Shown piece by piece: positions 8,146 to 64,000 of a stretch of DNA of 64,000 nucleotides (positions are counted from its first letter, which is position 1; each line of letters begins with the position of its first letter). The DNA is from Clostridia bacterium (GTDB taxonomy: Bacteria; Bacillota; Clostridia; Christensenellales; CAG-138): positions 2,598-66,597 of the forward strand of contig JAFWOT010000027.1 of NCBI GenBank assembly GCA_017509785.1, given 5' to 3'. The notes below the pieces were generated by a model, which saw only the letters and a program-made list of their open reading frames with translations, was not told where the DNA came from and did not search any database. A program made the translations under genes and the position numbers.

Positions 8146-9200
8146 GCTTCCTCCTTGGTTTGGGAACCGATGTGCTTGTTTCGCAGCTGACCGCACGCGC
8201 CGTCGATATCGGTGCCGAGTTCGCGCCTTACCGTGGCGGAGACGCGCAGCCTGCCGAGCAGGGCGGCGAATTCCGCGGCTTTTTTGCGGGTGACGCCCGA
8301 AAGACAGCGCTCCTCAACGCTGTTGAGCGGGATGAGATTTACGTGGCAGTTGATCCCCCGAAGGAGCCGCGCAAGCTCGCGGGCGTCCTCCTCCGAGGAA
8401 TTGACCCCCTCTATGAGGGCGTATTCGAATATCACGCGCCTGCCGGTCACGTCGGCGTAATGCTTCGCCGCGGGGATGAGCTCCGAGAGCGAATAGGCGT
8501 TGGCTATCGGCATCGTCTTCCTGCGGAGCTCGTCGTTCGGCGCGTGGAGCGAGATGCAGAGCGTTATATGCGGAGCGTCCTCCGTAAAGCTGTATATCTT
8601 CGGGACTATCCCGCAGGTCGAGACCGAGATGTTCCTCGGGCTGATGCCGAGGCCGTCCGCGGCCGTCGCCCTCTCAAGGAACCTCAGCGTGTTTTCGTAA
8701 TTGTCAAGCGGTTCCCCGCAGCCCATCATGACTATGTTCGTGACTGTGCGCTTGCGGTCCTCCGCGGCGGGGATGAGCCTTTCGACGGAGGTCACCTCGG
8801 AGAGCATCTCCCCGGCGGTGAGATCGCGCACCTTGCCGTTTAAAGTCGAAGCGCAGAACGCGCAGCCCATGCGGCAGCCGACCTGGCTCGAAATACAGAG
8901 CGTGTTCCCGTAGGAATAGCTCATCAGAACGCCCTCGACTATGTTCCCGTCGGCGAGCTCATAGAGGAACTTCTGCGTCTCGTCCCTCTTCGAAAACTTT
9001 CTTTCGATTATTTTCGCTCCGCCGAAAGGTATCGCGGAGAGCTTCTCCTTGAGGGACGCGGGCACGTTCGTCATCCCCTCCGGGGCGACTCCGCGCGCGA
9101 GCCAGGAAAGCACCTGCTTTGCGCGGAACTTCGGCTCGCCGAGCTCCGCCATCAGGGCGGTGAGCTCTTCGATATTCATTGATGCGAGATCGTTTGCCAT
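8142..9200 (-). CDS. rlmN: 23S rRNA (adenine2503-C2)/tRNA methyltransferase, radical SAM
   Basis: 352 aa with the CxxxCxxC motif CRMGCAFC, MGCGEPLDN, and a conserved C-terminal Cys (DGACGQL). Confidence 0.92.
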   Translation of the reverse strand: MANDLASMNIEELTALMAELGEPKFRAKQVLSWLARGVAPEGMTNVPASLKEKLSAIPFGGAKIIERKFSKRDETQKFLYELADGNIVEGVLMSYSYGNTLCISSQVGCRMGCAFCASTLNGKVRDLTAGEMLSEVTSVERLIPAAEDRKRTVTNIVMMGCGEPLDNYENTLRFLERATAADGLGISPRNISVSTCGIVPKIYSFTEDAPHITLCISLHAPNDELRRKTMPIANAYSLSELIPAAKHYADVTGRRVIFEYALIEGVNSSEEDARELARLLRGINCHVNLIPLNSVEERCLSGVTRKKAAEFAALLGRLRVSATVRRELGTDIDGACGQLRNKHIGSQTKEEA

Positions 9201-20301: not shown

Positions 20302-20359
20302 TATGAAAGCGGCCGCGCTTCACCGTTCGCGTGAAAACTCCGCGCGCGGCAGAAGCCCG

Positions 20360-20773
20360 TCACTCCCCCCTGCCCCTGCGGCGGCGCTTGCCGCTGACGG
20401 GGTTATGCACGGTGACTTCTATCTCGCCGAGGCCGTCGTCCGCCGGGGCCTCGCCATGCTCTATGAGGATCCGCTCCCAGTATTCGACGAGCTCCGGCGT
20501 GAGCTCAGTCGGCTCGTCGGGCGAATAGACGGGCTCCTCCCGTTTCGGCTTCGGAGCCGCCTTTTTATAGAGCGGCGCGACGTCGCGCTTCGGGACCTCG
20601 AGCTGATCCCGTGTGATGACGCGGGAGCGGAATTCGTTCCCCTCGTCCTCCATCGCAATGCACCTGCAGCAGTTATCGCAGATCTTGTTCGGATCCAGAT
20701 CGCAGCGGTCGCATTCGCCGCAGTCGTCGCAGATCTTCTTCTCGTCAAGCAGACAAATCCTTTTTCCTTCCAT
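20360..20773 (-). CDS. Small Cys-rich protein of unknown function (137 aa), divergent from lexA
   Basis: ORF trimmed to ATG 20773. N-terminus MEGKRICLLDEKKICDDCGECDRCDLDPNKICDNCCRC has 9 Cys in 38 residues, including CxxCxxCxxC. Then a Pro/Lys/Glu-rich linker, a conserved-looking EYWERILIEHGE block, and the basic tail GKRRRRGRGE. Confidence 0.6.
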   Translation of the reverse strand: MEGKRICLLDEKKICDDCGECDRCDLDPNKICDNCCRCIAMEDEGNEFRSRVITRDQLEVPKRDVAPLYKKAAPKPKREEPVYSPDEPTELTPELVEYWERILIEHGEAPADDGLGEIEVTVHNPVSGKRRRRGRGE

Positions 20774-20801
20774 ACTATCCCCGATTTTTAAAAAAAATAT
20801 C

Positions 20802-20841: not shown

Positions 20842-20929
20842 AAGGTCGTGGATCCATCGGAGCTTATTATAGCACGTTTCCGGGGTCTGCGAAACCCTTT
20901 TAAAAACCTTTTTCGGAAAAGGAGCGACA

Positions 20930-21598
20930 ATGAGCAAGAACGGCGAAACAAGAATGGCGGTTTACGACTACATATACGACCGCATCAAGAGCGGCAAGCC
21001 CGCCCCCACGGTGAGGGAGATATGCTCTCAGCTTCATCTCAAATCCACCTCCACCGCGCATCTGCACCTGACCAATCTGCAGAAGGACGGCTATATCGAT
21101 TTTGACCGCAACCTGCAGAGAACCGTCCGCCTGACGGACAGCATCCCCCCCGAATCGAAGTCCTTCCGCAGGAACGCCGCGGCCGAGAAGCTCAAAAAGA
21201 ACGAGTCGGTCTGCCGCCTGCCCCTGATAGGCAAGGTCGCCGCGGGTCAGCCGATACTCGCGTTCGACGATTATGAGGACGGCTATATGCTCCCCCGCGA
21301 ATTCCTGCGCAGCGCGGATCCATCCGAGACCTTCCTTTTGACCGTCGACGGGGAGAGCATGATCGACGCCGGCATATACACCGGGGATCTCATCATCGTC
21401 ACCCGCTCGTTCGAGGTGCGCGACGGGGATATAGTCGTTGCGAGGATCAACGGCGATTCCGCGACGGTCAAGCGCATCTACCGTGAGGGCAAGTACGTCC
21501 GCCTCCAGCCGGAGAACCCCACGATGGCGCCGATAATCGTCGAAGGGTTTGCCGTGGAGATCGTCGGCAAGGTCATCGGGCTCATTCGCTCGTATTGA
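20930..21598 (+). CDS. lexA: LexA repressor (S24 peptidase)
   Basis: 222 aa. N-terminal wHTH (TVREICSQLHLKSTSTAHLHLTNLQKDGYI), Ala-Gly cleavage site in KVAAGQPI, catalytic Ser in DGESM, and Lys in ATVKR. Confidence 0.93.
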   Translation: MSKNGETRMAVYDYIYDRIKSGKPAPTVREICSQLHLKSTSTAHLHLTNLQKDGYIDFDRNLQRTVRLTDSIPPESKSFRRNAAAEKLKKNESVCRLPLIGKVAAGQPILAFDDYEDGYMLPREFLRSADPSETFLLTVDGESMIDAGIYTGDLIIVTRSFEVRDGDIVVARINGDSATVKRIYREGKYVRLQPENPTMAPIIVEGFAVEIVGKVIGLIRSY

Positions 21599-21615
21599 CG
21601 ATATCACAACAAACG

Positions 21616-21652
21616 CAAACGGGAAACGCGGCGGCGCTTCCCGTTTTGTTTT
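21616..21652. terminator. Bidirectional rho-independent terminator between lexA and the convergent hfq operon
   Basis: Hairpin CGGGAA(A)CGC-GGCG-GCG(C)TTCCCG, flanked by AAAC on the left and TTTTGTTTT on the right. Confidence 0.7.
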
Positions 21653-21660
21653 CATGCCTT

Positions 21661-22899
21661 TTACATATCCTTCATCAGGCTGTCGAGCACGGCTTCGGCG
21701 GCGATCCTGCCGTGGGAATAGGTGAGGCCGCCCTGGATATAGGCGGTATAGGGTTCCCTTATTGGACCGTCGGCGGAAAGCTCTATCGAGGAACCCTGCA
21801 CGAAAGCGCCCGCCGCCATGATGACCTCGTCCGTGTAGCCGGGCATTGCCCATGGTTCGGGAACGACGAAGCTGTCCACAGGTGAGACGGACTGTATCAC
21901 GCGGCAGAATTCCGTGAGCTGCTCCTTCCTGTTGAAGCGGAGCGCCTGGACTATGTCGGAACGGTCCGCCTCGGAGGAGGGCATCGACATGAGGCCGAGC
22001 TTTTCAAAAACGCGGGCGAAGAGCGCGGCGTTCTTCAGCGCCTGGCAGACGACGTGCGGCGCCATGAATATCCCCTGATAGAAGGGCAGATACCCCGCCG
22101 GCCAGCAGCCCGCCTCGCGTCCGATGCCGGGAACGGTCACGCGGTTGGCGCAGATATCGATGAGGTCCCTCCTGCCGGCTATATAGCCGCCCGTCTGCGC
22201 GATCCCCGCGCCGGGATTCTTGATTAGCGAGCCCATTATGATATCCGCTCCGTAAGCCGTGGGCTCATGCTCGCGGGTGAACTCGCCGTAGCAGTTGTCG
22301 ACCATTATTATCGACTCCGGCGAACGCTCTTTTATGAGATCGAACGCGGGCTTCATCCCCTCGGGAAGGAGGGAATTCCTCCAAGCGTACCCGCGCGAGC
22401 GCTGGAAATAGACTATCTTCGGCTTCTCCGCGAGCTCCTCCGCGAGCGTAATGAGGTCGATCTCCCCCTTTGGCGTCAGCTCCGTCATCCGGCAGGAAAC
22501 GCCGAATTCCCGAAGCGAACCGGGCGCGTTCCCCTCTATGCCGATGGCTTCGAGCAGCGTATCATAGGGCGAGCCCGTCGCGCAGAGCAGCGTATCGCCG
22601 GGGCGCAGCAGCGCGGAAAGCGCCGTGAATATGGTCTGAGTGCCGGATGAGAACTGCGGCACGACGAGCGCCGCCTCCGTTTCGAACACCTCGGCGAATA
22701 TCCTGTCGAGAGCGTCGCGGCCTTCGTCGTCGTAGCCGTAGCCCGTCGTGAAATTGAAATGCCTCGCGGCGACGCGATTGCCCCGAAACGCCCCGAGCAC
22801 GCGGCGCGCGCAGGTCAGCTCGACGGCCTCCATCCGCCCGAACACGGCGGCAAGCTCCTTTTCCGCGGCTTCTATTATCTTCCCGGCTGTAAGTTTCAT
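21661..22899 (-). CDS. PLP-dependent 'aluminium resistance'/YnbB family protein (Cys/Met-metabolism lyase-like)
   Basis: 412 aa. The N-terminal pattern and its position immediately after hfq match the YnbB-type gene common downstream of miaA-hfq in Firmicutes. Called from recognition only. Confidence 0.7.
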   Translation of the reverse strand: MKLTAGKIIEAAEKELAAVFGRMEAVELTCARRVLGAFRGNRVAARHFNFTTGYGYDDEGRDALDRIFAEVFETEAALVVPQFSSGTQTIFTALSALLRPGDTLLCATGSPYDTLLEAIGIEGNAPGSLREFGVSCRMTELTPKGEIDLITLAEELAEKPKIVYFQRSRGYAWRNSLLPEGMKPAFDLIKERSPESIIMVDNCYGEFTREHEPTAYGADIIMGSLIKNPGAGIAQTGGYIAGRRDLIDICANRVTVPGIGREAGCWPAGYLPFYQGIFMAPHVVCQALKNAALFARVFEKLGLMSMPSSEADRSDIVQALRFNRKEQLTEFCRVIQSVSPVDSFVVPEPWAMPGYTDEVIMAAGAFVQGSSIELSADGPIREPYTAYIQGGLTYSHGRIAAEAVLDSLMKDM

Positions 22900-30140: not shown

Positions 30141-31571
30141 ATGAATTTCAGAAAAATAAAAACAACAGCCGCGCTGATGGGCTTCGTGCTCGCTTTCGGT
30201 CTGACCGGGTGCAGGCTCACCCCCGAAGCGAACGTGCCCGTCGATGAGACTGCGCCCGCGGAAGTTACCGCCGCGCCGGAGGTCTCCGAGCAGCCGGATA
30301 TCACTTATGAACCGGAGGCGACGGCATGGCCCGGCAACGAGCAGGCCGACGGGAAGAGCGTCATAATGCGCTGCGGGGATACGGAGTTCATGCTCTACGA
30401 CTTCGGGCAGGCGTTCTACAGCAGCCAGTATCTCCAATATTATATGTACGGCATGGTCACGCCCGACCAATACTGCGATATGGTGATCGACGAGCTCAAG
30501 GGGCTCATGTATATGGTCGCCGCCGCGAAGGACGCGGGCATCGAGCTGACGCAGGATGAGATCGACGAGATCGACTCCAACATAGCCGATTACGTGGAGC
30601 AGGTCAAGGTGAGCTACCGTGATTACGTCGAGGAGGGCGTGGATGACGTCGAAGCCGCGGCTCTCGCCATGCTTGAGGAGGATCTCGCGCAGGACGGGCT
30701 CGACCTCGATTCATTCGTCGTGCTCGCCGCTAATAATCTGCGCATACACAAGATCGCCGAGAAGTATTATGAGACCCTCCAAGAGTCCGTCAGCGTGAGC
30801 GACGACGACGTGAGGACGTATCTCGACGAAAAGCTCGAGACCGCGCCGGACGAATCCGTTTCCGATTTCGTCGCCGATATGAACGGCTATTACGAGGGCA
30901 GCGCCCCCTACCCCGTCTACATCGTGGACGACTGTTTCTCCGTCAACCACATCTACATGGGGTTCGAGAGCAGCACCGATGATGAAGGCAACATCGTTTA
31001 TGATACCGCGAGCCGCGCAGAGGACGAGGCCGAGGTAGAGGCAAAGATAGAAGAGGCCGCGGATTACGACGCCTTCATGGAGCTTGAGACCGTCTACGGC
31101 GAGGATCCCGGCATGGATTCCGAGACCTACCGTGAGAACGGCTACATAATCCACGGGGATCTCGTCAACGATTATTTCGCCGGGTTCGTTTACGCGGCGA
31201 TGAATCTGCACGAGGGCGAATGGTCCGTTCCCGTCGACGGGGGCGCTTCGGATGAGCCCGCCCCCGCGGAGCCGGAGCTCGCGTTCTTCACGCTGAAGGA
31301 CGGGACGCGCGTCGTGAAGGTATGCACGGAATCCGGCGTGCATTACATAATCGTCAACAAGGAGTACAAGCGCGGGCCCGTCAAGTACACCGTCGGCGAT
31401 GAGATCTGGGAATCCTGGCGCGACGCCGCCACCGAAACGCGCATGTCCGATCTTTACGACACGCTCAGCGAGGAATGGAGGGGCCAATACTCCATTGATA
31501 CCGACGTGTTCACGATCAAGGCGCATTACCCGCCCGCCGACGATTATTACGAGGATCCCGACAGCAAATAA
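30141..31571 (+). CDS. Lipoprotein of unknown function (possibly PrsA/SurA-N-like foldase)
   Basis: 476 aa with signal peptide and lipobox (FGLTGC). The acidic, helical N-half resembles SurA_N/PrsA N-domains. I could not verify a clear parvulin motif. Confidence 0.55.
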   Translation: MNFRKIKTTAALMGFVLAFGLTGCRLTPEANVPVDETAPAEVTAAPEVSEQPDITYEPEATAWPGNEQADGKSVIMRCGDTEFMLYDFGQAFYSSQYLQYYMYGMVTPDQYCDMVIDELKGLMYMVAAAKDAGIELTQDEIDEIDSNIADYVEQVKVSYRDYVEEGVDDVEAAALAMLEEDLAQDGLDLDSFVVLAANNLRIHKIAEKYYETLQESVSVSDDDVRTYLDEKLETAPDESVSDFVADMNGYYEGSAPYPVYIVDDCFSVNHIYMGFESSTDDEGNIVYDTASRAEDEAEVEAKIEEAADYDAFMELETVYGEDPGMDSETYRENGYIIHGDLVNDYFAGFVYAAMNLHEGEWSVPVDGGASDEPAPAEPELAFFTLKDGTRVVKVCTESGVHYIIVNKEYKRGPVKYTVGDEIWESWRDAATETRMSDLYDTLSEEWRGQYSIDTDVFTIKAHYPPADDYYEDPDSK

Positions 31572-31667: not shown

Positions 31668-34040
31668 TCAGCTATTCTCTTCCTCGGTCGTGATGGCGGA
31701 CAGATCGCCGAACAGGTTAGCGAGCGAGGTCGTGGAGGACTGTACGGGAGGAAGCTCGTAATCGGCATCCTCACGACGGCGCCTCTCGGGCCTGGGCTCA
31801 CCGCTGCGCTCGCCGCGCTCACGGCGGCGATCCTCGCGCTGCTGGTTCTGCTGCTGACGGTTCTGCTCCTCCTGAGCACGCCTCTCGGCACGCTCGGCAC
31901 GCTCACGGTTGCGCTCCTCGCGCTCCTTGGCGATCTCCTCGGCGATCTCGGGGTTCTCCTCAAGGATGACTTCCTTGCGGGAGAGGGAGATGCGGCGCTG
32001 CTCGGGGTTGACCTCGAGCACCTTGCAGCGGACGATATCGCCCACGTGGAGCTCGTCCTCGACCTTGGTGACGCGGCGGGGACCGACCTGAGAAATGTGA
32101 ATGAGACCGTCGATCGTGGGCTCAAGGGCGACGAACGCGCCGAAGGTCACGATGCGGACGACCTTGCCCTCTACGATGGAGCCGACGGGATACTTCTCGC
32201 CCGCCATCGTCCAGGGCTTGGGCTGGAGCTGCTTGTAGCCGAGGGAAACCCTCTGCTTCTCAGCATCCACGTTGAGGATGAGGACCTCGATCTCCTGACC
32301 GACCTTGAGCACCTCATTGACGTGCTTCACGCGGCCCCAGGCGGCGTCGGTCACGTGAACGAGACCGTCGATACCGCCGATGTCGACGAAGGCGCCGAAA
32401 TCGGTAAGGCGGCGTACAACGCCCTTTACCTTCGCACCGACCTCGAGCTCGGCCCACTTCTGGCGCTTGGCTTCTTCGGCCTCGGCAAGAAGGACGGCCT
32501 TGCGGGAAGCGACGACGCGCTTGCGCTGCTTGTCGACCTCGATGATCTTGACCTTCATGGTCTGACCGACGAACTCATCGAGCTTCTCGATGTACTTGGT
32601 GGAAACCTGGGACGCGGGGATGAAAGCCCTGATGCCGTTGATGTTGGCAATGAGGCCGCCCTTGACGACTTCCTTGCCGACCGCTTCAACGACCTTACCC
32701 TCGGACTCGGCGTCGGCAGAGAACTGCTCCCAAACCTTCTTGCTCTCGACGTTCTTGCGGGAGAGAAGGACGTTTCCTTCACCGTCGTTGACCTTGAGAA
32801 CCTCGACCTCGATCTGATCGCCTACGGACACAACGGTCGCGGGATCGACTTCGGGATCGCTCGAGAACTCGTCGCGGGGAATAAAGCCGTCTGCCTTGTA
32901 TCCAACGCTTACGCCTACCACGCCGCCTTCCATTACGGAAAGAACGGTGCCGGTAAGGATCTGACCGTTGCGGATACGCACCAGCGTCTTTTCGAGAGCT
33001 TCTTCAAAGTTGGGTTCGCCCTCTTCAACGACGGGCTCTTCTGCAGCGGGCGCAGCTTCGGCTGCTTCTTTGACGGCTTCCACAACGGGAGCGGCCTCTT
33101 CGACAGCGGCTTCAGCTACGGGTGCTGCGGTTTCTGCGGCCGTTTCGGCCGCGGTCTCAATGTTTTCGGCTGTGCAGTTTTCTACGTTAGCCTTATCCAG
33201 TTCGCTCATTCTTGTAATAACCTCCCTAATCAGCGAATCCGGTGTCGATGCACCGGCAACAACTCCTGTTATTATACCATTTATCTCGGGGATTTCAATA
33301 GGAAATTCGGCTATATTTGAAATTCTTTTTACGATTTTGCTATGTTTTTCGCAGATCGTGGCCAGTTTCCGGGTGTTGGAGCTGTGTTTATCCCCTAAAA
33401 CAAGCATCATGTCGCATTTCTTACTCAATTCCGCCGCCTCGTTCTGGCGGTCCCTCGTGGTGCTGCAGACGGTGTTGAACACCTTTCCTTCGGGGAAAAG
33501 GCGTTTGAATTCGGCCTCTATCCCGCGGAAGGAATCAAGATCGAACGTCGTCTGCGAGACGAGGCAGAACCGCTCTCCCTCCTCGCGGGAGCGGAGAAGC
33601 GCGACCTCCTCCGGGGTACGGACGAAGCGCGCCGTCCCTTCGCAGCAGCCGTTGATGCCGACCGTCTCCGGGTGCTTCGGATCGCCGGAGATGACTATCC
33701 CCCACCCCTCCCTGTAGAGTGAAGTCACGATATCGTGGATCTTCATGACAAAGGGACAGGTGCAGTCGACGATGGGGATGTTCCTCACGGCGCATTTTTC
33801 GTAGATCTCCGGAGGAACGCCGTGCGATCTTATGACGAGCGCCGCCCCTTCGGGCAGCTCGTCGAGAGAATCTATATGGAGCACGCCCTCGTGCTCGAGC
33901 TCCTCCACGGCGGTATGGTTGTGTATGAGCTCGCCGAGGGTGTAGACCCGCCCACGCTCGCGGGCGGCGGCCTTCGCCATCTCGACGGCCCGCCTCACGC
34001 CGAAGCAGAAGCCGATGTTTTTCGCAGTCAGGATCCGCAT
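31668..34040 (-). CDS. ispH: Bifunctional 4-hydroxy-3-methylbut-2-enyl diphosphate reductase (IspH) / ribosomal protein S1 fusion
   Basis: 790 aa. N-terminal IspH (MRILTAKNIGFCFGVRRAV..., CPFV, three Cys ligands), an Ala/Glu-rich linker, four S1 (OB) repeats, and an Arg/Glu-rich tail. This fusion is well known in Clostridia. Confidence 0.92.
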   Translation of the reverse strand: MRILTAKNIGFCFGVRRAVEMAKAAARERGRVYTLGELIHNHTAVEELEHEGVLHIDSLDELPEGAALVIRSHGVPPEIYEKCAVRNIPIVDCTCPFVMKIHDIVTSLYREGWGIVISGDPKHPETVGINGCCEGTARFVRTPEEVALLRSREEGERFCLVSQTTFDLDSFRGIEAEFKRLFPEGKVFNTVCSTTRDRQNEAAELSKKCDMMLVLGDKHSSNTRKLATICEKHSKIVKRISNIAEFPIEIPEINGIITGVVAGASTPDSLIREVITRMSELDKANVENCTAENIETAAETAAETAAPVAEAAVEEAAPVVEAVKEAAEAAPAAEEPVVEEGEPNFEEALEKTLVRIRNGQILTGTVLSVMEGGVVGVSVGYKADGFIPRDEFSSDPEVDPATVVSVGDQIEVEVLKVNDGEGNVLLSRKNVESKKVWEQFSADAESEGKVVEAVGKEVVKGGLIANINGIRAFIPASQVSTKYIEKLDEFVGQTMKVKIIEVDKQRKRVVASRKAVLLAEAEEAKRQKWAELEVGAKVKGVVRRLTDFGAFVDIGGIDGLVHVTDAAWGRVKHVNEVLKVGQEIEVLILNVDAEKQRVSLGYKQLQPKPWTMAGEKYPVGSIVEGKVVRIVTFGAFVALEPTIDGLIHISQVGPRRVTKVEDELHVGDIVRCKVLEVNPEQRRISLSRKEVILEENPEIAEEIAKEREERNRERAERAERRAQEEQNRQQQNQQREDRRRERGERSGEPRPERRRREDADYELPPVQSSTTSLANLFGDLSAITTEEENS

Positions 34041-41929: not shown

Positions 41930-43063
41930 TTATGCCGCGAAGAGCGAAGCGAGCAGCCTCCACCAGAAGCCGAGATCCGTCTTCGGAACGGTCTTTTCGG
42001 CTACGAGCTCCGTTTCGCCGACGAGCTCATCCCCGTCGTAGACGGAGAGCCTGCCTACCGTCTGCCCCCGGGATACCGGCGCTTCGACGTATTCCGGCAG
42101 ATCGACCCGAGTCGTAAGGCGCAGCCTCTCGCCCTTTCGCATCACTGCTATTATACTACTTTTCGACGAAACTTCCAACACGTTTTCGGCTCCTTCTCGA
42201 ATATATGTCTTGCCGGCGGGCTGCCCGGCGGGGACGACCCCGATCTTTTCATACTCATCGAAGGCTTCGTCCATCATGCGGGAGGCGGCTTCGAACATGG
42301 GGCGGCAGTTGAGCACGCAGCCGATGAGCTCCATCCCCTCGCGCTCCGCTCCGTAGACGAGGCATCTTCCCGCCCCGGAGGTGTAGCCCGTCTTGACTCC
42401 GAAGGCTCCTTCGTAATCCCAGAGGAGGGCGTTTTTGTTCTTGAACGTCCGTGCGCAGGCGCCCGACTCCGTCCTGTAATACTTCGTCGAGACCATCTCG
42501 CGGAAATCGGCGTTTTTCATCGCCTCCCTTGCAATAAGGCAGAGCTCGTATGCCGTGGTGCGGTGTCCCTCCGCGTCGAGGCCGTTAGGCGTGACGAAGC
42601 GCGTCGCGGCAAGGCCGAGCTCCGCCGCCTTCGCGTTCATCATTTCGACGAAGCCCGTCACGCTCCCGCCGACGTGTACGGCGAGCGCGACGGCCGCGTC
42701 GTTGCCGGAGGCGAGCATCAGCCCGTAGAGGAGGTCGCGCACGGTCATGCTCTCCCCCCTTTGGAGGTACACGGACGAGCCCTCGACCCCGACGGCCTCG
42801 TCCGGAACGCGGACGAGCTCATCGGGGGAACTGTTTTGAAGCGTCACGAGGGCGGTCATTATCTTCGTCGTGCTCGCCATTGGAAGGAGCGTGTCGGCGT
42901 TCTTCGCAAACAGGAGCCTGCCCGTTTCCGCCTCTATGAGGGCGTATGCCGCGGCCTCCTCCGCCGCCGCGGAGGCGGGCTCCGCCTTCGGCGCAGCCGC
43001 CATCACCGCGAGCGTGAACGCCAGTATTATCGCCGCCGATACGGCGATCCATCTCCTGCTCAT
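41930..43063 (-). CDS. D-alanyl-D-alanine carboxypeptidase (peptidase S11, DacB/DacF-like)
   Basis: 377 aa with signal/TM segment, SxxK (ASTTKIMT), SGN (LASGNDAA) and KTG (VKTGYT). Confidence 0.9.
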   Translation of the reverse strand: MSRRWIAVSAAIILAFTLAVMAAAPKAEPASAAAEEAAAYALIEAETGRLLFAKNADTLLPMASTTKIMTALVTLQNSSPDELVRVPDEAVGVEGSSVYLQRGESMTVRDLLYGLMLASGNDAAVALAVHVGGSVTGFVEMMNAKAAELGLAATRFVTPNGLDAEGHRTTAYELCLIAREAMKNADFREMVSTKYYRTESGACARTFKNKNALLWDYEGAFGVKTGYTSGAGRCLVYGAEREGMELIGCVLNCRPMFEAASRMMDEAFDEYEKIGVVPAGQPAGKTYIREGAENVLEVSSKSSIIAVMRKGERLRLTTRVDLPEYVEAPVSRGQTVGRLSVYDGDELVGETELVAEKTVPKTDLGFWWRLLASLFAA

Positions 43064-43611
43064 TCGGCTTCGTCCCCGTCGTACTCAATATCGATGCGGA
43101 AGCGGTCTTCGGGCTTCTCCCCCGCGGGAGCCGCGCTCTCTTCGGGCTCGGGGCGCTTCTCAAACGAGGCGAAGCGCCCGTGTCTGCGCCTCGTCTTCGG
43201 GGCGGGAGCGCAGTCGCCGCCGAGCTCCTTTATGAGCCGCTCCGCCGCGTCCATCGCCTGCGGGAGCATATCCACGAGGCGGTCGAGGGTCGAATCCTGT
43301 TTGGCGGGGAGCACGCGGACGGAATCCCCCTGCACGGAGAGGAACGCGAGCGGGGTCAGGCTCATGCCGAGGGTCGAAGCTCCTATGAAGGGGTAATTGC
43401 CCTCGCAGTTTATCTCGACCGCGCTCTTCTTCGGGACGGAGGCGGCGATGTACTCTCCCCCGCCGACGAGCATCCCGAGGGCGACCTTCGACACGGGCAG
43501 TATCATACCGCCATCCGTCATTATCGGGCTGCCGATGACGGTGTTCACGTCGGCAAGAGCCTTGATGTGCTCCATTGACGACTGCATTATGTTTTCGATG
43601 GGATGGTTCAT
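43060..43611 (-). CDS. ytfJ: Sporulation protein YtfJ/GerW family
   Basis: 183 aa: IKALADVNTVIGSPIMTDGGMILPVSKVALGMLVGGGEY, typical of GerW/YtfJ, plus a C-terminal acidic extension. RBS AAGGAGA. Confidence 0.85.
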   Translation of the reverse strand: MNHPIENIMQSSMEHIKALADVNTVIGSPIMTDGGMILPVSKVALGMLVGGGEYIAASVPKKSAVEINCEGNYPFIGASTLGMSLTPLAFLSVQGDSVRVLPAKQDSTLDRLVDMLPQAMDAAERLIKELGGDCAPAPKTRRRHGRFASFEKRPEPEESAAPAGEKPEDRFRIDIEYDGDEAE

Positions 43612-43612
43612 G

Positions 43613-44122
43613 TTATCTCCTTTTCGATTTGATTATCTCCATTACTAATTTACCCGGAGAGAAAACGGCTATTCCTTCCACATTAAGGTCGAATACCGTT
43701 TTTTGAAGATCGGGCGTTATACTGAGCCGCGCTCTCTCCGGCTTGAGGAGCGCCGCCGCGGATGAAAGGACCGCGCCGAGAGCCCCCGCGAGTATAACGC
43801 CTGTATCCGGCCTGCCGCTTAGCCCTGCCGTGCAGGAGATCCCGAGCTCCTTTACGCGCAGGAACGCGAGCGGCCGCATGCGGGAACGCCCGCGGCGGCG
43901 CTTCTTTTCGGCGGCGGGACGCGGCGGCGCGCCGTTAACGGATATCATAAGCCCCGCTCCCGCCTTCGGAAACACGCGGAACCGCAGAAGCCGGAAACGC
44001 CTCCCGAACATGGATAACCACACGGTCCCCCGGAGCGAGAGCCCCTCTGACGCGATTCGGAACGGCAGACTCTTGTTTACAAGTATCAGCGCGGCAAGCG
44101 CCGCCGCGAGCAAAAGCGGCAC
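43613..44122 (-). CDS. DUF2953-like (YtfI-like) sporulation-associated membrane protein
   Basis: The track ORF is 43613..44212. I prefer GTG 44122 because AGGAGG lies 6 nt upstream and the product then starts with a hydrophobic segment (VPLLLAAALAALILV). ATG 44212 would sit 17 nt from ruvC with no RBS. Family call from its position beside ytfJ and general resemblance only. Confidence 0.55.
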   Translation of the reverse strand: MPLLLAAALAALILVNKSLPFRIASEGLSLRGTVWLSMFGRRFRLLRFRVFPKAGAGLMISVNGAPPRPAAEKKRRRGRSRMRPLAFLRVKELGISCTAGLSGRPDTGVILAGALGAVLSSAAALLKPERARLSITPDLQKTVFDLNVEGIAVFSPGKLVMEIIKSKRR

Positions 44123-44229
44123 GGGTCTCCTCCTTAAAAAACATATCGCATTTAGTTTGGCCGAAAAGCTTGTAAATATTTTGTTTTCATGGTAAGATAG
44201 TATAGGAAACATTTTGGGAGGAGCGTCCG

Positions 44230-46371: not shown

Positions 46372-47370
46372 ATGTTTGGTAAGAAGGCTAAGGAACTGCA
46401 GGAGCTTCTGACTCAGCGCAATTCCGAGAACGAGCTGATGAAGAAGCGGATCGCCGAGCTTGAGGCCGAAAACGAACGCCTCAGGGAGCAGGAGTCGCTC
46501 GTGCTTCGCGCAATAACCGAAGCCAACCGGACGGCGAACCGCATCGAACAGGAGGCGAACGACGAGCGCGACAAGCTCATCGCATCCGCCGAGGAGCAGG
46601 TGCGCGAGGCCGAGGAGAAGGCGAACGACGTCCTCACGAAGGCGGACGAGGAGGCGGCGGGCCTTAAGAAGGACGCCGACGATTATTCCGAGAACGTCCG
46701 TCTGGACGCGAACATCTACGTCGAGCGCACGATAATCGCCTCCCAGATGGAGGTCAACAAGCGCAAGGACGTGATGGCGCAGATGAACGATCTTTTGAGG
46801 AAGACGACAGATCACATCAACGAGCAGATGGCCTCCTTCAAGGAGCTGCTCGCCTCCGTCATCGAGGAGAACGAGGAGCAGACGCACGAGCTCTGCGCCG
46901 ATATCGAGAAGTGCAATTGCTCGTGCGAGGAGTGCGAGAACCCCTGCGCCGCGCAGAGCGCCTCCGCCGGCAAGCCCAAGAAGGGCGACGGCGAGGATGA
47001 AGGCGATGACGAAGGCGAAGACGGCGATGAGCCCGCGGAGGAGGCCGAAGCCGCACCCGCGGAGGAGCCCGCCGAGGCCGACGAGGGCGAGCAGCCCGCG
47101 GCGAAGCTCGGCGCGGACGAGCCGGAGGCCGAAGAGGGACCGGAGTTCGATCCCGTCGTGCTTCCCAACGAATACAGGAATCCCGCGGAGCTGATGAAGA
47201 ACATCTACTATCTTCAGAAGAGGGATATCCCCACGATCACAAGATCCGATTTCAGCGATCCCGTTCCCGAGGGCGGTCTCACCTTCCCCGACGAGCTCGG
47301 CGATGACGCGGAGCTTCCCCGCGACGAGAAGCTCGGAGAGCTCGTGACGGAGGTCATGCCCGCCTCATAA
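46372..47370 (+). CDS. Coiled-coil protein with a Cys cluster and an acidic low-complexity region; unknown function
   Basis: 332 aa. About 170 aa of heptad-rich sequence (DivIVA-like coiled coil but no DivIVA N-terminal motif), CADIEKCNCSCEECENPC, a Glu/Asp/Ala/Pro-rich stretch, then a conserved-looking C-terminus (NPAELMKNIYYLQKRDIPTI). Confidence 0.6.
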   Translation: MFGKKAKELQELLTQRNSENELMKKRIAELEAENERLREQESLVLRAITEANRTANRIEQEANDERDKLIASAEEQVREAEEKANDVLTKADEEAAGLKKDADDYSENVRLDANIYVERTIIASQMEVNKRKDVMAQMNDLLRKTTDHINEQMASFKELLASVIEENEEQTHELCADIEKCNCSCEECENPCAAQSASAGKPKKGDGEDEGDDEGEDGDEPAEEAEAAPAEEPAEADEGEQPAAKLGADEPEAEEGPEFDPVVLPNEYRNPAELMKNIYYLQKRDIPTITRSDFSDPVPEGGLTFPDELGDDAELPRDEKLGELVTEVMPAS

Positions 47371-53394: not shown

Positions 53395-53436
53395 AACGGC
53401 CGGCGGCGCTGTAACAGCGCCGCCGATTTGTTTTAT
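53395..53436. terminator. Bidirectional rho-independent terminator between glsA and deoB
   Basis: 11-bp stem CGGCGGCGCTG, loop TAA, CAGCGCCGCCG, flanked by ATAAA and ATTTGTTTTA. Confidence 0.8.
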
Positions 53437-54593
53437 ATGAGCTTATCGAGGAACGATTCGCCGCAGCGCCATCTTTCGCCCGTGAGGTACTCGTAGACCG
53501 TTGCGCCTATATCCGCAAACGAGCGGCGGACGCCGAGGTCGGCGGGCTTGCCGCGGCCTATGACGGCGAGTATCGGAATGTACTCCCTCGTATGATCGGT
53601 GCCGGGGAAGCACGGGTCGCAGCCGTGATCGGCGGTGATGATGAGCATATCCTCCTTCGTCATGGCGGAGCGGATCTCGGGGAGCTTCGCATCGAAGTAT
53701 TCAAGCGCGCGGGCATAGCCCTCGGGGTCGTTCCTGTGGCCGTAGAGCATGTCCGTATCGACGAGGTTCGTGAATATGAAGTCGCCCTTCCCCTCGCGCA
53801 GGAAGCGGAGCGTCGCCTCTATGCCGTCGGGATTGTTCTTGGTATGATCGACGGTCGTGATCCCGCGGTGGGCGAAAATATCCTCTATCTTGCCTATGCC
53901 GACGATGTCGAGCCCCTTCTGCGAGAGGCCGTCGAGAATGGTCTCCCCCATGGGCTCGAGGGCGTAATCGCGGCGGTTCTCCGTCCTCGTATAGGAGCCG
54001 TTCGAGCCTATGAACGGGCGCGCGATGACGCGGCCGACGAGGTTGTCCCCGACGAGTATCTCGCGTGCTATGGAGCAGTAACGGTAGAGCTCCTTAAGGG
54101 GGATGACCTCCTCGTGGGCGGCGATCTGGAATACGCTGTCCGCGGAGGTGTAGACGATGGGCATGCCCGTCCTCACGTGGATGTCTCCGAGCCTTTGGAT
54201 TATCTCCGTGCCGGAAGCGACCTCGTTGCCGAGTATGCCGCGCCCGATGCGGCGCCGGAACTCACTGATGACCTCTTCGGGGAACCCGTTGGGATACGTG
54301 CGGAACGGGACCTCCATCGGGAAGCCCGCCATCTCCCAATGGCCGCTCGTCGTATCCTTGGCGTGGGTCACCTCCATGGATTTGCCGTACGCGGCGGAGG
54401 GGAACGCGACGCGGGGCAGCATGGAGCCCTTTATATTGCCGAGGCCCATCCCGAGCATGTTGGGGATCTTCATCCCCCTGTACGCGTAGACGTGCCCGAA
54501 GGTATGCGCCCCGATATCCCCGAAATCACGCGCGTCGGGAAGATACCCGATGCCGGCGCTGTCAAGTACGATAATGGTTGCCCTTTTTTTCAT
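53433..54593 (-). CDS. deoB: Phosphopentomutase
   Basis: Track ORF (GTG 54602) trimmed to ATG 54593 (RBS GAGGTG). MKKRATIIVLDSAGIG, TSGHWEMAG, ITADHGCDP. Confidence 0.92.
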   Translation of the reverse strand: MKKRATIIVLDSAGIGYLPDARDFGDIGAHTFGHVYAYRGMKIPNMLGMGLGNIKGSMLPRVAFPSAAYGKSMEVTHAKDTTSGHWEMAGFPMEVPFRTYPNGFPEEVISEFRRRIGRGILGNEVASGTEIIQRLGDIHVRTGMPIVYTSADSVFQIAAHEEVIPLKELYRYCSIAREILVGDNLVGRVIARPFIGSNGSYTRTENRRDYALEPMGETILDGLSQKGLDIVGIGKIEDIFAHRGITTVDHTKNNPDGIEATLRFLREGKGDFIFTNLVDTDMLYGHRNDPEGYARALEYFDAKLPEIRSAMTKEDMLIITADHGCDPCFPGTDHTREYIPILAVIGRGKPADLGVRRSFADIGATVYEYLTGERWRCGESFLDKLI

Positions 54594-54615: not shown

Positions 54616-55410
54616 TCAGTATTCCATTGCGAGCCTCGCGATGAACTCGGCGTTGGTCGGTTTGCCGCGAGCTTCGTCGACGCTCATGCCGAAGACGCTG
54701 TGCTGGTATTCGATATCGCCCGTCGTCCATGCCGATTCGATCGCTGTGCGGATCGCCTTCTCGACCGCCCGCGGGGTCGTCCCGTAGTATTCGGCGATGC
54801 TCCGGTAGAGCTTCTTCGGTTCGGGGGCGGAGCACACCGAGCTCTGTACGGCTATCGCCGCAATAAGATATTTGTGCCCGAGCAGCCTCCGGCTTACGCC
54901 GAGCTTTTCGAGCTTGTCCGCTATGGAGCGCCTCAGGCGGAGCTCGTCGTGCGTGCTGTCGCTCCAGATGAGATCCGTAACGATCGGGGCGAACTGCTTC
55001 ATGCCCATGAGGTTGACTCCGTACTTGATGGAGGTCTTGTACTTTTTAAATACGTCCGCCGCATCGCGCGAGGGATCTTCCGAGATCAGTATGTGATCGT
55101 TCAGCACCCCGTTTTGGATGAGGGATGCGAGCGTCTCATCGTTCGATTTGGCGAGCCCTATCGTCATCGACCTGCGGAACCTGTCGTTCTGCGAGATGCT
55201 CATGAGCGTACCCGCGAATTCTATATCGACCTCGGCGAGTATGAGCATGGGCTCGAAGGTGTACAGCCTCTCCGCGAGGCCCTCCTCACCCCTGGTGAAG
55301 AGGAAACTCATTTCAAACAGTTCCTCGATCTTCTTCACCACTTCGGCTATGCAGCCGTCAGGCCTTCCGATGAAAAGTCCCCTGTGTTCGAGAATGAGTC
55401 CTTCCCGCAT
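54616..55410 (-). CDS. spo0A: Spo0A-like regulator: canonical Spo0A C-terminal DNA-binding domain fused to a degenerate (pseudo-)receiver domain
   Basis: Track ORF 54616..55683 trimmed to ATG 55410 (GGAGG 8 nt upstream; overlaps the spoIVB stop as TAATG). 264 aa. The C-terminus (LGHKYLIAAIAV..., YGTTPRAVEKAIRTAIESAWTTGD, GKPTNAEFIARLA) matches Spo0A_C. It sits in the syntenic position after recN-spoIVB. The N-domain lacks the conserved D/D/D/T/K residues in my hand alignment. Confidence 0.8.
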   Translation of the reverse strand: MREGLILEHRGLFIGRPDGCIAEVVKKIEELFEMSFLFTRGEEGLAERLYTFEPMLILAEVDIEFAGTLMSISQNDRFRRSMTIGLAKSNDETLASLIQNGVLNDHILISEDPSRDAADVFKKYKTSIKYGVNLMGMKQFAPIVTDLIWSDSTHDELRLRRSIADKLEKLGVSRRLLGHKYLIAAIAVQSSVCSAPEPKKLYRSIAEYYGTTPRAVEKAIRTAIESAWTTGDIEYQHSVFGMSVDEARGKPTNAEFIARLAMEY

Positions 55411-56654
55411 TATCCCGCCTCCGTTATCTGCCTGTACATCCAATAGGCATAGGCTCCGCAGCCCTTTGTCGGGTCGTTCACGAAAACGTGAGTGACCGCC
55501 CCGACAAGCCTCCCGTCCTGTATTATGGGGCTGCCGCTCATGCCCTGAACGACTCCCCCGGTGAGCTCGAGCAGGCGCTCGTCGGTCACCTCTATTATGA
55601 GGCCCTTCTGCGCGGGCTCGCTCTGCCTTTCCGTTTTCAAAATGCGGCATTCGTAAATTTCCGCTCTGCCGGACGCCGCGCATATGAGCTCCGCTTCCCC
55701 CGTATGGACTTCGTCCGGGAACGCGGTCTCGAGCTCCTCAGCCGAAAGGAGTTCCATCGCCTCCTCCGTGAGCCTGCCGAATATGCCGAGCTCTGTGTTT
55801 GCGTCGATGCTCCCGAGTTCGCGGCTCGCGGAGCCGAAAGTCCCGTGGAGCTCGCCGGGGGCGCCCTGACGCCCCTTCGTGACTCCGATTATACCCGCGA
55901 TCACGAGCCTGCCGTCCCGCACCTTAAGGAGCGAGCCGGTGTCCGCATCCGCAGCGGCATGGCCGAGTGCCGCCATGAGCCCCGTCCCCCTTTCGAAGAA
56001 GGAGAGCGTGCCGACTCCGACGGTGCTGTCCCTCACCCATGCGCCGAGGCGCGCCTCGCCGGAAGGATCCCTTTCCGTTTCTGCCGTCACGGTGGATCTT
56101 CTTCCGCCGCGCTCTATTGTGAGCCTGACCGTGTTCCCCGCCCGGGAGAGCTTCCGGGAAAGCTCCTCCGAGGAGGAGATCCCCTCCCCGTCGACGAGGA
56201 GTATGACGTCGCCCGGGCGCAGCCCCGCACGGGAAGCGGGCGAGGTCCTTTCCCCTTCCGCGTTCACGAAATCGGAAAGCCCGACGACGAGCACTCCGTC
56301 GGTATAGATGCTGACGCCGACCGCCTCTCCCCCCGGGACGAGGCGCGGCCTGCCGCCGACGAACGCGGGTATCTCCCGCAGGGTGACCCCGAACGGCAGG
56401 CTGAGCGCGACGCGCCTTCCGCCGAGGGATTCATCACCGCTGCTGACGGCGGAAACCGTAAGCTCCCCCACGGGAAGTCCGCCGAGCTTCTCGTAAAGCT
56501 CCGTCTCCGTTTCGGCGAACACCGCCTCCGGCAGGGAGCGGAGCCCGCGCATCGCGGCCGTGTTGTTGAAGGCAAGCAGCGCGAAAGAAAAAAGTACGGC
56601 AAAAGTTTTTTTCAGAACGCGGCGCGCGCCGCCCCGGTGTATGGTTTTACTCAT
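55410..56654 (-). CDS. spoIVB: SpoIVB stage IV sporulation signalling serine peptidase (S55)
   Basis: 414 aa. N-terminal TM segment, PDZ domain (GLRPGDVILLVDGEGISS), and peptidase S55 motifs (LGHAAADADTG; GMSGSPIIQDGRLVGAVTHVF). Confidence 0.9.
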   Translation of the reverse strand: MSKTIHRGGARRVLKKTFAVLFSFALLAFNNTAAMRGLRSLPEAVFAETETELYEKLGGLPVGELTVSAVSSGDESLGGRRVALSLPFGVTLREIPAFVGGRPRLVPGGEAVGVSIYTDGVLVVGLSDFVNAEGERTSPASRAGLRPGDVILLVDGEGISSSEELSRKLSRAGNTVRLTIERGGRRSTVTAETERDPSGEARLGAWVRDSTVGVGTLSFFERGTGLMAALGHAAADADTGSLLKVRDGRLVIAGIIGVTKGRQGAPGELHGTFGSASRELGSIDANTELGIFGRLTEEAMELLSAEELETAFPDEVHTGEAELICAASGRAEIYECRILKTERQSEPAQKGLIIEVTDERLLELTGGVVQGMSGSPIIQDGRLVGAVTHVFVNDPTKGCGAYAYWMYRQITEAG

Positions 56655-56711: not shown

Positions 56712-58397
56712 CTAATTCAATGATGCTTCGGAGGCTTTTTTTATGAGCTCCTCCGCGTGGGTGACGGCGGCGGCGTTTTCGCCCTGCGCGCCCATTATCC
56801 TGGCGAGCTCCGCCGGGCGCTCACCTTCTTCAAGGCGCTTTACGTTCGTGACCGTCCTTCCGCCCTCCTCATGCTTCGAGACGACGAAATGCGTGTCCGC
56901 AAAGGCCGCTATCTGCGGCAGATGCGTGACGCAGAGCACCTGATGCTTCGACGCGATGCGCTTCATCCTGAGTCCTACGGTGTTCGCCGTCGATCCGCTG
57001 ATGCCGGTGTCGACCTCGTCGAATATGAGGGTCGGTATCTCGTCCGCGTCGGTGATGACCGTCTTCAGGGCGAGCATTATCCTTGAAAGCTCGCCTCCGG
57101 AGGCGACCTTTGAGAGCGGCTTTAAAGGCTCGCCCTCGTTCGCGGAAAGGAGCAGGCTCACGGCGTCCGCGCCGTTCTCGTGCGGCTCGTCGTCGATGAC
57201 CGTGAAGCTCGCGCTGAGCTTCGCCTTCTTCATGCCGAGGTGCTTCAGCTGCTCCTCCGCGAGGGAACAGAGCTTTTCCGCGGAACGCTTCCTTGCGGCG
57301 GTGAGCTTTGCGGCCGATTCGCGGTATCGGGCCAAAGCTTCCTTCTTCTTCTTTTCAAGCGCCTCCCTCTTCGAGGCGTCGCCCGTGAGCTCTTCGAGCT
57401 CTCGCGCAGCTTCATCGCGGAAGCGGAGCACCTCGCCGAGGGTACTCCCGTACTTATGCTTCAGACCGTCGAGCACGTCGAGCCTCGTTTCGAGCTCGTC
57501 TATGCGGCGCGGGTCGAAATCGGCCTCGAGCCTCAGATCGCGGACGGAATACGCCGCGTCCTCGACCTCGTAATAGAGATCGCCGAGCCTCGAATACAGC
57601 TCCCCGTAACGGGGCGAGAACTCCCCTATCGCGGAGAGCTCGTCCACGGCCCTTTTGAGGGCCTGCACCGCGCCGCCCTCCCCGGTGAGGAGATCGGAAG
57701 CCGCGGTGAGCCCGCCCGTGATGCGCTCCGCGTTCGTGAGGACCGAGAGCTCCTCCTTGACGCGGTCCTCCTCGTCCGGGGAAAGAGCGGCCTTATCTAT
57801 CTCGTTTATCTGATAATTCAATATATCTATGCGGCGCTCGCGCTCGGCCTCGGAGAGAAAGCCCGAATTCAGCTTTGCGCGGACGGCGGAATACTCCTCA
57901 TAAACGGAGCGGACGGAATCCTTTAGGGGGGAGATCTCCTCCGCCATGAACGCGTCCGTGACGCCGAGGTGGTTTTCCTCGTCGAGAAGGGACTGATGCT
58001 CGTGCTGGCCGTGAACGTCGACGAGCATATCGGTGACCTCCTTCAGGGAGGCGAGCGGCAGTATCACGCCGTTCACGCGGCAGAGGCTCCTGCCCGAAAC
58101 GGAGAGCTCGCGCATTATGCTCATCCGCCCCTCGTCGGGCTCTATGCCGAGCTCCGCGAGTTTTTCGATAACGGCGGGCTTTTCGGAGATATCGAAAATT
58201 CCCTCCACGCGGCATTTCTGTTTCCCGTAGGAGATGAGCTCGCGGCTGCCGCGGCTGCCGAGTATGAGGTTGATGCCGTCTATGATTATGGATTTGCCCG
58301 CGCCCGTTTCTCCCGTGAGCACGGTGAATCCGCCGGAAAGCTCAAGGTCGAGCTTTTCTATTAGGGCGACGTTTTCGATTAGCAGTCTTTCAAGCAT
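56712..58397 (-). CDS. recN: DNA repair protein RecN
   Basis: 561 aa: LTGETGAGKSIIIDG, a long coiled coil, then C-terminal ASGGELSRIMLAL and FDEVDTGISG. Confidence 0.93.
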   Translation of the reverse strand: MLERLLIENVALIEKLDLELSGGFTVLTGETGAGKSIIIDGINLILGSRGSRELISYGKQKCRVEGIFDISEKPAVIEKLAELGIEPDEGRMSIMRELSVSGRSLCRVNGVILPLASLKEVTDMLVDVHGQHEHQSLLDEENHLGVTDAFMAEEISPLKDSVRSVYEEYSAVRAKLNSGFLSEAERERRIDILNYQINEIDKAALSPDEEDRVKEELSVLTNAERITGGLTAASDLLTGEGGAVQALKRAVDELSAIGEFSPRYGELYSRLGDLYYEVEDAAYSVRDLRLEADFDPRRIDELETRLDVLDGLKHKYGSTLGEVLRFRDEAARELEELTGDASKREALEKKKKEALARYRESAAKLTAARKRSAEKLCSLAEEQLKHLGMKKAKLSASFTVIDDEPHENGADAVSLLLSANEGEPLKPLSKVASGGELSRIMLALKTVITDADEIPTLIFDEVDTGISGSTANTVGLRMKRIASKHQVLCVTHLPQIAAFADTHFVVSKHEEGGRTVTNVKRLEEGERPAELARIMGAQGENAAAVTHAEELIKKASEASLN

Positions 58398-63999: not shown

Positions 64000-64000
64000 G

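Follow-up and report, generated by a model that had tools for sequence, protein, structure and literature searches.

Here, we show that the syntenic spo0A gene of an uncultured rumen and gut clade of Christensenellales encodes a pseudo-receiver domain fused to a genuine Spo0A DNA-binding domain. We refer to the gene as X. It lies on the minus strand of a 64,000-nt stretch (hereafter, the window) of contig JAFWOT010000027.1, from a Clostridia metagenome-assembled genome (MAG). An earlier note on this DNA, made from the sequence alone, had proposed that the syntenic Spo0A carries a pseudo-receiver; our analysis supports that proposal and extends it from this one gene to a conserved family. On the strength of sequence comparisons and a predicted structure, we give a probability of about 0.65 to the reading that X is the positional orthologue of Spo0A, has an aspartate-less pseudo-receiver, and acts without phosphorylation.

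The residues required for receiver phosphorylation have all been replaced in X. We mapped them by aligning the family profile with YycF, PhoP, and RR468 from the PDB, and by hhalign comparison with 14 canonical Spo0A proteins. Three independent alignments concur that the canonical acidic pair D10/D11 corresponds to G15/R16, the phospho-acceptor D56 to E60 (the last residue of the modeled β3), T84 to A87, and K106 to I109. Neither the profile alignments nor the structure model place a phosphorylatable Asp at the acceptor site of X or reveal an acidic pocket. The earlier note had likewise found every phospho-residue substituted, and this overall result stands, as does its T84 substitution; its hand alignment was out of register elsewhere, having matched D10/D11 to E8/H9, D56 to A59, and K106 to S110. 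Its suggestion that the Glu of the LAEVD motif might occupy the acceptor site is borne out, as both profile alignment and structure model put E60 there.

The loss extends throughout the family, for which we scored each column over 58 members. The first position of the DD pair is Gly in 56 of 58, while the second is variable (E 23, K 14, R 9). The acceptor column is similarly mixed (E 26, D 6, R 6, V 6, P 4, others 10), and the six members that have Asp there retain Gly as the first residue of the DD pair. A conserved acceptor Asp in an intact pocket, which the earlier note had named as evidence that would overturn its proposal, is therefore absent. The T column comprises V 20, A 16, T 10, and S 3 (Thr or Ser in 13/58), and the K column K 20, R 6, I 6, and L 6, along with other residues. 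Because none of the five canonical residues is conserved in its column, selection does not act on the active-site chemistry in any part of the family. Under the definitions given by Bourret et al. 2025 and Maule et al. 2015, the N-terminal domain of X is a pseudo-receiver within the subclass of aspartate-less receivers (ALRs). A pseudo-receiver is a receiver-type domain without at least one of DD, D, T/S, and K (PMC12632262), and in an ALR it is the phospho-acceptor Asp that is missing (PMC4395418).

Of the two Pfam profiles that the earlier note proposed as a check, Spo0A_C is present in X, while Response_reg (PF00072) has no match even at E ≤ 10, leaving its gathering threshold unreached. 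With no Pfam or NCBIfam receiver match, the N-terminal domain was assigned by structure prediction and remote profile searches. An AlphaFold2 model built from a 36-sequence family alignment (mean predicted local distance difference test score, pLDDT, of 83.5) has five strand-helix units across residues 9-127, in the classical (βα)5 layout of a receiver and at a pLDDT of about 90. The elements are β1 9-14, α1 19-32, β2 34-39, α2 42-51, β3 56-60, α3 63-72, β4 82-87, α4 92-99, β5 105-108, and α5 113-127. Foldseek searches of the PDB with the model return Spo0A C-terminal domains at the top, followed by response regulators that include isolated receivers [3lte, template-modeling (TM) score 0.76; RR468 (5uht), TM score 0.75; and 3crn], with a root mean square deviation of about 3 Å. 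The receiver-like character that had been suspected for the N-terminal half is thus supported by both the modeled fold and its structural neighbors.

Remote profile searches point the same way. A profile of the N-terminal domain alone has receivers as all nine of its best PDB matches (E 0.013-0.26; YycF at 0.013, RR468, CheY, and PhoP). Run by exhaustive HMMER over 1.84 billion representative proteins, this profile gives only 20 matches at E ≤ 1e-3, nine of them at E ≤ 1e-10. Seven of the nine are family members or fragments of them, and the remaining two are P0066 and P0071. P0066, a protein of 2,700 amino acids (aa) with 22 short repeated matches, was rejected as a relative, being a repetitive-protein artefact. 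All eight of the non-family matches that were checked (E 2e-7 to 6e-4) carry Pfam Response_reg. When the N-terminal domain alone is compared by hhalign with canonical Spo0A receivers, the result is E 0.079 with a probability below 1%, and a hidden Markov model of canonical Spo0A yields no alignment of the family N-terminal domains, which are trimmed off. By these profiles, the N-terminal domain has diverged almost beyond recognition from the receivers of its orthologues. Direct likeness to Spo0A's own receiver is essentially gone, and the link is visible only through broader receiver profiles and the predicted fold.

The C-terminal domain, by contrast, is clearly homologous to that of canonical Spo0A, as the earlier note had said in calling it unmistakable. 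PF08769 matches X at residues 163-261 with 89.8 bits (E 1.3e-25; cut-off 25), and a PDB sequence search with X returned nothing besides the Spo0A C-terminal domains 1fc3 and 1lq1 (E 3e-16), a match that improves to E 1e-26 with the family profile. The NCBI equivalog model for Spo0A, TIGR02875, scores X at 78.6 bits against a cut-off of 200, and only profile positions 142-252, the C-terminal part, are aligned. Because Spo0A_C is its sole Pfam domain and TIGR02875 fails, X is recorded at NCBI as “Spo0A C-terminal domain-containing protein” (MBR3383376.1). When aligned to 1fc3 and 1lq1, X keeps the recognition-helix segment (TTPxAVEKAIRxAIExAW vs TTASRVERAIRHAIEVAW), together with the KPTNAEFIA helix. 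In what we take to be the Bacillus subtilis numbering, X retains E213 and R217 and has Lys in place of R214; in the σA-activating region, it retains G227, F236, and V240 as well. From these comparisons, the DNA-binding half of X looks functional.

X is tightly coupled to spoIVB. Its open reading frame (ORF) of 264 aa is intact and begins at 55410, with a GGAGG ribosome-binding site 8 nt upstream, and its ATG overlaps the spoIVB stop codon as TAATG, all in agreement with the earlier note. A longer, 355-aa ORF in the mechanical ORF list was set aside as an in-frame run-on into spoIVB, the start of X being fixed at 55410 by the family alignment. Downstream, 11-22 nt separate X from the deoB-like gene, depending on the choice of start. 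A scan around spoIVB-X-deoB found no convincing σ70-type promoter for X, and a terminator scan found no minus-strand terminator-like site between the three genes. This absence fits co-transcription without proving it, and the tight spoIVB-X-deoB unit is probably co-transcribed.

The gene order around X also matches expectations for spo0A. The minus-strand neighborhood xseA-xseB-ispA-dxs-tlyA-nadK-recN-spoIVB-X, noted previously, is seen among the called genes, which on public contigs with an identical X run asp23-asp23-nusB-xseA-xseB-ispA-dxs-tlyA-nadK-recN-spoIVB(PDZ+S55)-X-metalloenzyme(deoB-like). A protein identical to X occurs on 17 contigs from several samples; X is thus not an assembly error or artefact.

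By protein search, X has 59 relatives that are full length or nearly so, with about 265 aa and 32-100% identity, all 59 of which are annotated with PF08769 alone. The family comprises about 58 clusters at 90% identity. In addition, we scanned one genome per GTDB species with two motifs, one of them GKPTNAEF, and list 80 loci. Full-length family members are present in about 15 GTDB species, all of them uncultured rumen or gut MAGs. Two of these, RGIG6884 and RGIG8203 (91-93% complete), are classified as Clostridia; Christensenellales; CAG-138; UBA3857 in the supplement of their source paper. The order nadK-recN-spoIVB-X-deoB is present at every family locus with sufficient flank; L011 and L017, which lie on short contigs, miss part of the upstream flank. 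In 16/16 family loci, spoIVB and X are separated by -19 to +33 nt and a GGAGG-like site is present; the gap between X and deoB is likewise short. In the window and at all 15 GTDB family loci, X thus lies immediately behind spoIVB, in the ancestral place of spo0A.

Within this conserved setting, the parts of X evolve at different rates. Mean pairwise identity is 36% for the N-terminal domain, 53% for the linker, and 67% for the C-terminal domain. For the three closest pairs, the ratio of nonsynonymous to synonymous substitution rates (dN/dS) is 0.13-0.25 in the N-terminal domain and 0.04-0.13 in the C-terminal domain. The pseudo-receiver thus changes at two to three times the rate of the DNA-binding domain, and yet it is under purifying selection and clearly constrained. 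Conserved, family-specific residues of the N-terminal domain lie outside the old active site: R10, G15, E53-P54 (in a YEPMLI motif), and D116. The linker, modeled by AlphaFold2 with low confidence, is better conserved than the N-terminal domain, and its W149 and D151 are invariant in the family alignments. Its motif has no counterpart in canonical Spo0A, whose linkers are variable and were removed for phylogeny by Galperin et al. (Galperin 2022 preprint). Because it is conserved here while canonical linkers vary, the linker of X is a new feature and probably has a function.

Sporulation genes near X look functional, as had been proposed. SpoIVB passes its equivalog model (TIGR02860; 338.6 bits vs a cut-off of 305.25) and YtfJ/GerW is also above its own. 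A dacB-type PBP5 gene adjoins ytfJ. The 199-aa ORF beside ytfJ at 43613-44212 (-) had been called DUF2953, which we could not confirm, as it has no NCBIfam match and no Pfam domain on record. The same contig also carries, some 1.7-6 kb past window position 64000, an eight-gene spoIIIAA-AH operon (L085:2874-7203), immediately upstream of asp23-asp23-nusB-xseA, as in Bacillus. Its Pfam matches comprise Spore_III_AA, SpoIIIAC (twice), Spore_III_AE, and SpoIIIAH; the AB, AF, and AG positions are occupied by small genes. Further upstream of this operon is a gene for a PRC-barrel protein (YlmC/YmxH-like; L085:470-724). From SpoIVB, GerW/YtfJ, and spoIIIA, this does not look like a lineage whose sporulation genes are generally eroded, a state that the earlier note had listed among the grounds for abandoning its proposal.

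Several observations weigh against X being a Spo0A that acts without phosphorylation. In Bacillus, spoIVB is expressed in the forespore. Tight coupling of X to this gene allows no intergenic space for a classical spo0A promoter, and both the timing and the role of X may therefore differ from those of a sporulation initiator. The window shows no enrichment of the 0A-box heptamer TGTCGAA (10 matches vs 7.9 expected). X also changes far faster than its neighbors, with identities across family loci of 38-52%, compared with 63-77% for RecN and 73-85% for DeoB, which could reflect relaxed constraint. Furthermore, the hosts are all uncultured MAGs, and most Christensenellales MAGs are predicted by machine learning to be non-sporulating (SpoMAG, PMC12536801).

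The last two kinds of evidence, rapid change and predicted non-sporulation, would also suit a relic or repurposed regulator in a non-sporulating lineage, in which phosphorelay input was lost, the receiver drifted, and the gene either took on another transcriptional role or is being lost. Spo0A is kept in many non-spore-formers, Macrococcus has a “highly degraded” spo0A (Galperin 2022 preprint), and cultured Christensenella species are described as non-spore-forming (PMC11536998). Other Christensenellales-like MAGs have partly degenerate Spo0A_C proteins away from spoIVB. We nevertheless regard this explanation as unlikely, given the strict equivalog cut-offs passed by SpoIVB and GerW/YtfJ, the full spoIIIAA-AH operon adjacent on the contig, and the retention of spoIVB upstream of X in all family species. 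Neutral decay of X in particular looks unlikely, because its N-terminal domain and linker are under purifying selection and have family-specific invariant residues.

The same synteny makes it improbable that X is a diverged extra copy, sporulation initiation being run by a canonical spo0A that can be phosphorylated and lies elsewhere in the genome: X directly follows spoIVB, in the ancestral position, in every family genome. Several types of Spo0A_C protein do coexist in gut Clostridia, including short ones without a receiver, and receiver-less phage copies are known (PMC10294663). However, there is no second Spo0A_C locus in any family genome among the 80 loci listed, a weak test given its two motifs, though lineage-typical canonical copies share GKPTNAEF. 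The nearest non-family match at NCBI, P0062, is annotated with Spo0A_C only; with an accession about 370,000 away from that of X, it very probably belongs to another MAG. We give slightly less credence still to phosphorylation of X at a non-canonical site, be it D62, D18, or a Ser/Thr targeted by a Hanks-type kinase. D62, at acceptor position +2, is Asp in 24/58 family members and D18 in 28/58, and the window encodes a PrkC-like PASTA-domain Ser/Thr kinase of 634 aa together with a PrpC-like PP2C phosphatase at 5532-8196 (-). Yet neither Asp is conserved, and the metal- and phosphoryl-binding geometry for Asp phosphorylation (as defined in PMC12632262) is missing, because Gly takes the first place of the DD pair and the Thr and Lys are not conserved. 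The kinase and phosphatase, for their part, sit in their usual housekeeping operon (def-fmt-rsmB-rlmN-prpC-prkC-rsgA-rpe), with no link to X.

We therefore favor X as a positional Spo0A orthologue that works without phosphorylation. His-Asp phosphotransfer, whether from a kinase or a phosphorelay, would not be able to switch such a protein. Most likely, it would bind 0A-box-like DNA and regulate transcription in its unphosphorylated form. Control might be exerted through protein amount, via the tight and probably co-transcribed spoIVB-X-deoB unit, through a partner or ligand that works on the pseudo-receiver, which is still selected, and on the conserved linker (MPIVT…WHD), or through both. 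The earlier note had foreseen a regulator that is constitutively active or otherwise controlled; the loss of phospho-residues agrees with this, while the mode of control is something that we can only infer. More tentatively, and at rather less than even odds, a clade that keeps endospore machinery (spoIIIA, spoIVB, and gerW) might have freed sporulation initiation from His-Asp phosphotransfer. In that case, its sole Spo0A would be a pseudo-receiver protein with a new input, either expression coupling to spoIVB and deoB or a ligand or partner that reads the linker and remodeled receiver.

Table 1. Gene X, its domains and key codons, and neighboring genes, in window coordinates.
Feature	Position	Strand	Basis or remarks
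Gene X, spo0A positional orthologue (pseudo-receiver + conserved linker + Spo0A_C)	54616..55410	-	264 aa; stop codon 54616-54618
Pseudo-receiver domain, aa 9-127	55030..55386	-	(βα)5 AlphaFold model, Foldseek, remote profile matches
G15-R16 codons, site of metal-binding acidic pair DD after β1	55363..55368	-	Aligned to YycF, PhoP, and canonical D10/D11
E60 codon GAG, phospho-acceptor Asp site, C-terminal end of β3	55231..55233	-	Aligned to YycF Asp in LILLDI and canonical D56
Linker, aa 128-151, motif KYGxNL…MPIVT…WHD	54958..55029	-	Family alignments
Spo0A_C DNA-binding and transcription-activation domain, aa 163-261	54628..54924	-	PF08769, PDB 1fc3/1lq1
GGAGG ribosome-binding site of X	55418..55422	-	Inside spoIVB 3' end, 8 nt upstream of X ATG
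spoIVB (414 aa; PDZ + S55 peptidase)	55410..56654	-	TIGR02860; Pfam Peptidase_S55 + PDZ; stop overlaps X start
deoB-like phosphopentomutase-like metalloenzyme gene	53433..54593	-	Pfam Metalloenzyme; conserved third member of spoIVB-X-deoB unit
recN, synteny anchor upstream of spoIVB	56712..58397	-	Pfam SMC_N and AAA_23
ytfJ/gerW sporulation gene	43060..43611	-	TIGR02874 118.6 bits vs cut-off 116.3; Pfam Spore_YtfJ

Outside the family, there are other Spo0A_C proteins with unusual receivers. In an uncultured Christensenellaceae MAG (CAYJIQ01), a Spo0A adjoining spoIVB (L018:1741-2484) has a Pfam receiver of 33.7 bits in which the acceptor is Ser (PDIVIVSLVLP), DD is DE, T is Y, and K is R. Here, a syntenic spo0A seems to have lost its phospho-acceptor independently or at an earlier point. 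Glu is the acceptor-site residue of two further proteins with Pfam receivers of 54-57 bits, L042:586-1422 (pattern D-S-E-S-K) and L075:5602-6348 (D-G-E-T-K), as well as of L057 (D-A-E-S-K), which is the same as P0064 and is annotated with PF00072 under the NCBI name “sporulation transcription factor Spo0A”. The acceptor site is also Glu in L028, L049, and L073, Ser in L050, L081, L077, and L083, and Gly in L033. Asp-less Spo0A_C proteins therefore seem common in uncultured gut Clostridia. Four proteins from various Clostridia MAGs (L031, L058, L045, and L076) match Spo0A_C and, at 124-182 aa, are too short to include a receiver; they resemble the truncated spo0A homologues carried by phages (PMC10294663).

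Elsewhere in the window, a 790-aa protein at 31668-34040 (-) is a fusion of IspH (4-hydroxy-3-methylbut-2-enyl diphosphate reductase) with ribosomal protein S1, matching NF000907 at 724.7 bits; its precomputed Pfam record is empty. Five ORFs have no significant Pfam or NCBIfam family: 30141-31571 (+), 46372-47370 (+), 20303-20791 (+), 20900-21853 (-), and 43613-44212 (-).

Endospore formation has been described as universally triggered by phosphorylation of Spo0A. A natural, clade-wide, non-phosphorylatable Spo0A among intact-looking sporulation genes would be a counter-example, and X would offer a route to study the rewiring of a master developmental switch. If the related proteins with Ser or Glu at the acceptor site in other uncultured Clostridia are truly Asp-less Spo0As, such rewiring would have arisen more than once. 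There are also practical consequences for MAG pipelines that use spo0A as a sporulation marker: such genes either escape them through failure of the equivalog model or are counted while the changed switch goes unnoticed. The family linker motif and the selected pseudo-receiver, in turn, provide concrete targets for the question of how pseudo-receivers are regulated.

Compared with canonical Spo0A (B. subtilis, Geobacillus, and Clostridioides difficile; TIGR02875, COG5801), X has the same position after spoIVB, the same length, and the same two-domain plan. The C-terminal domains are clearly homologous, and X retains the AVEKAIRxAIExAW segment and KPTNAEFIA helix. In contrast, its receiver is recognized by neither Pfam nor the NCBI equivalog, its five phospho-residues are replaced, its linker is conserved, and there is no intergenic promoter region. 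A functional logic for such a protein is familiar from the laboratory. B. subtilis Spo0A without a functional N-terminal domain, as in the sad67 N-domain deletion or the isolated C-terminal domain, is constitutively active. Once inhibition by the receiver is removed, Spo0A_C can bind DNA and activate transcription, which is the logic that we propose for X. Those are laboratory mutants, however, whereas X occurs naturally and is conserved throughout a clade.

Receivers without a phospho-acceptor are themselves well established. Pseudo-receivers and ALRs make up about 4% of receivers (PMC12548384), and regulators such as ChxR of Chlamydia, HP1043/HsrA, BldM/WhiI, GlnR, and CmrT of C. difficile share with X a receiver fold that lacks this residue. 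Several ALRs act independently of phosphorylation (PMC4395418; PMC12548384; PMC12632262). Glu, the residue found in X, is the most common ALR acceptor substitution (26%; PMC4395418), and ChxR and CmrT both carry it and act without phosphorylation (PMC4395418; PMC12548384). These regulators differ from X in having OmpR-, NarL-, or other outputs and receivers that Pfam mostly recognizes, whereas X combines a Spo0A_C output with a receiver below Pfam detection. Spo0A is mentioned neither in the ALR survey (PMC4395418) nor in the 2025 pseudo-receiver review with its supplements (PMC12632262). In a literature search whose scope excluded most subscription journals, we came across no account of a natural, Asp-less Spo0A that occupies the spo0A locus across a clade.

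X is not wholly without precedent, since pseudo-receivers, receiver-less phage spo0A, and degraded spo0A are already known. Gut phages carry homologues of the Spo0A effector domain that lack a receiver (PMC10294663), and in these, as in X, the Spo0A DNA-binding domain has been freed from phosphorelay input. The phage homologues are truncated and reside on phage genomes, whereas X is full length, chromosomal, and at the ancestral locus, with a selected pseudo-receiver and linker. The degraded spo0A of Macrococcus caseolyticus (Galperin 2022 preprint) resembles X in being a divergent spo0A in a host whose sporulation status is in doubt. Unlike that gene, X is under purifying selection and is found in about 15 species, beside sporulation genes that look intact.

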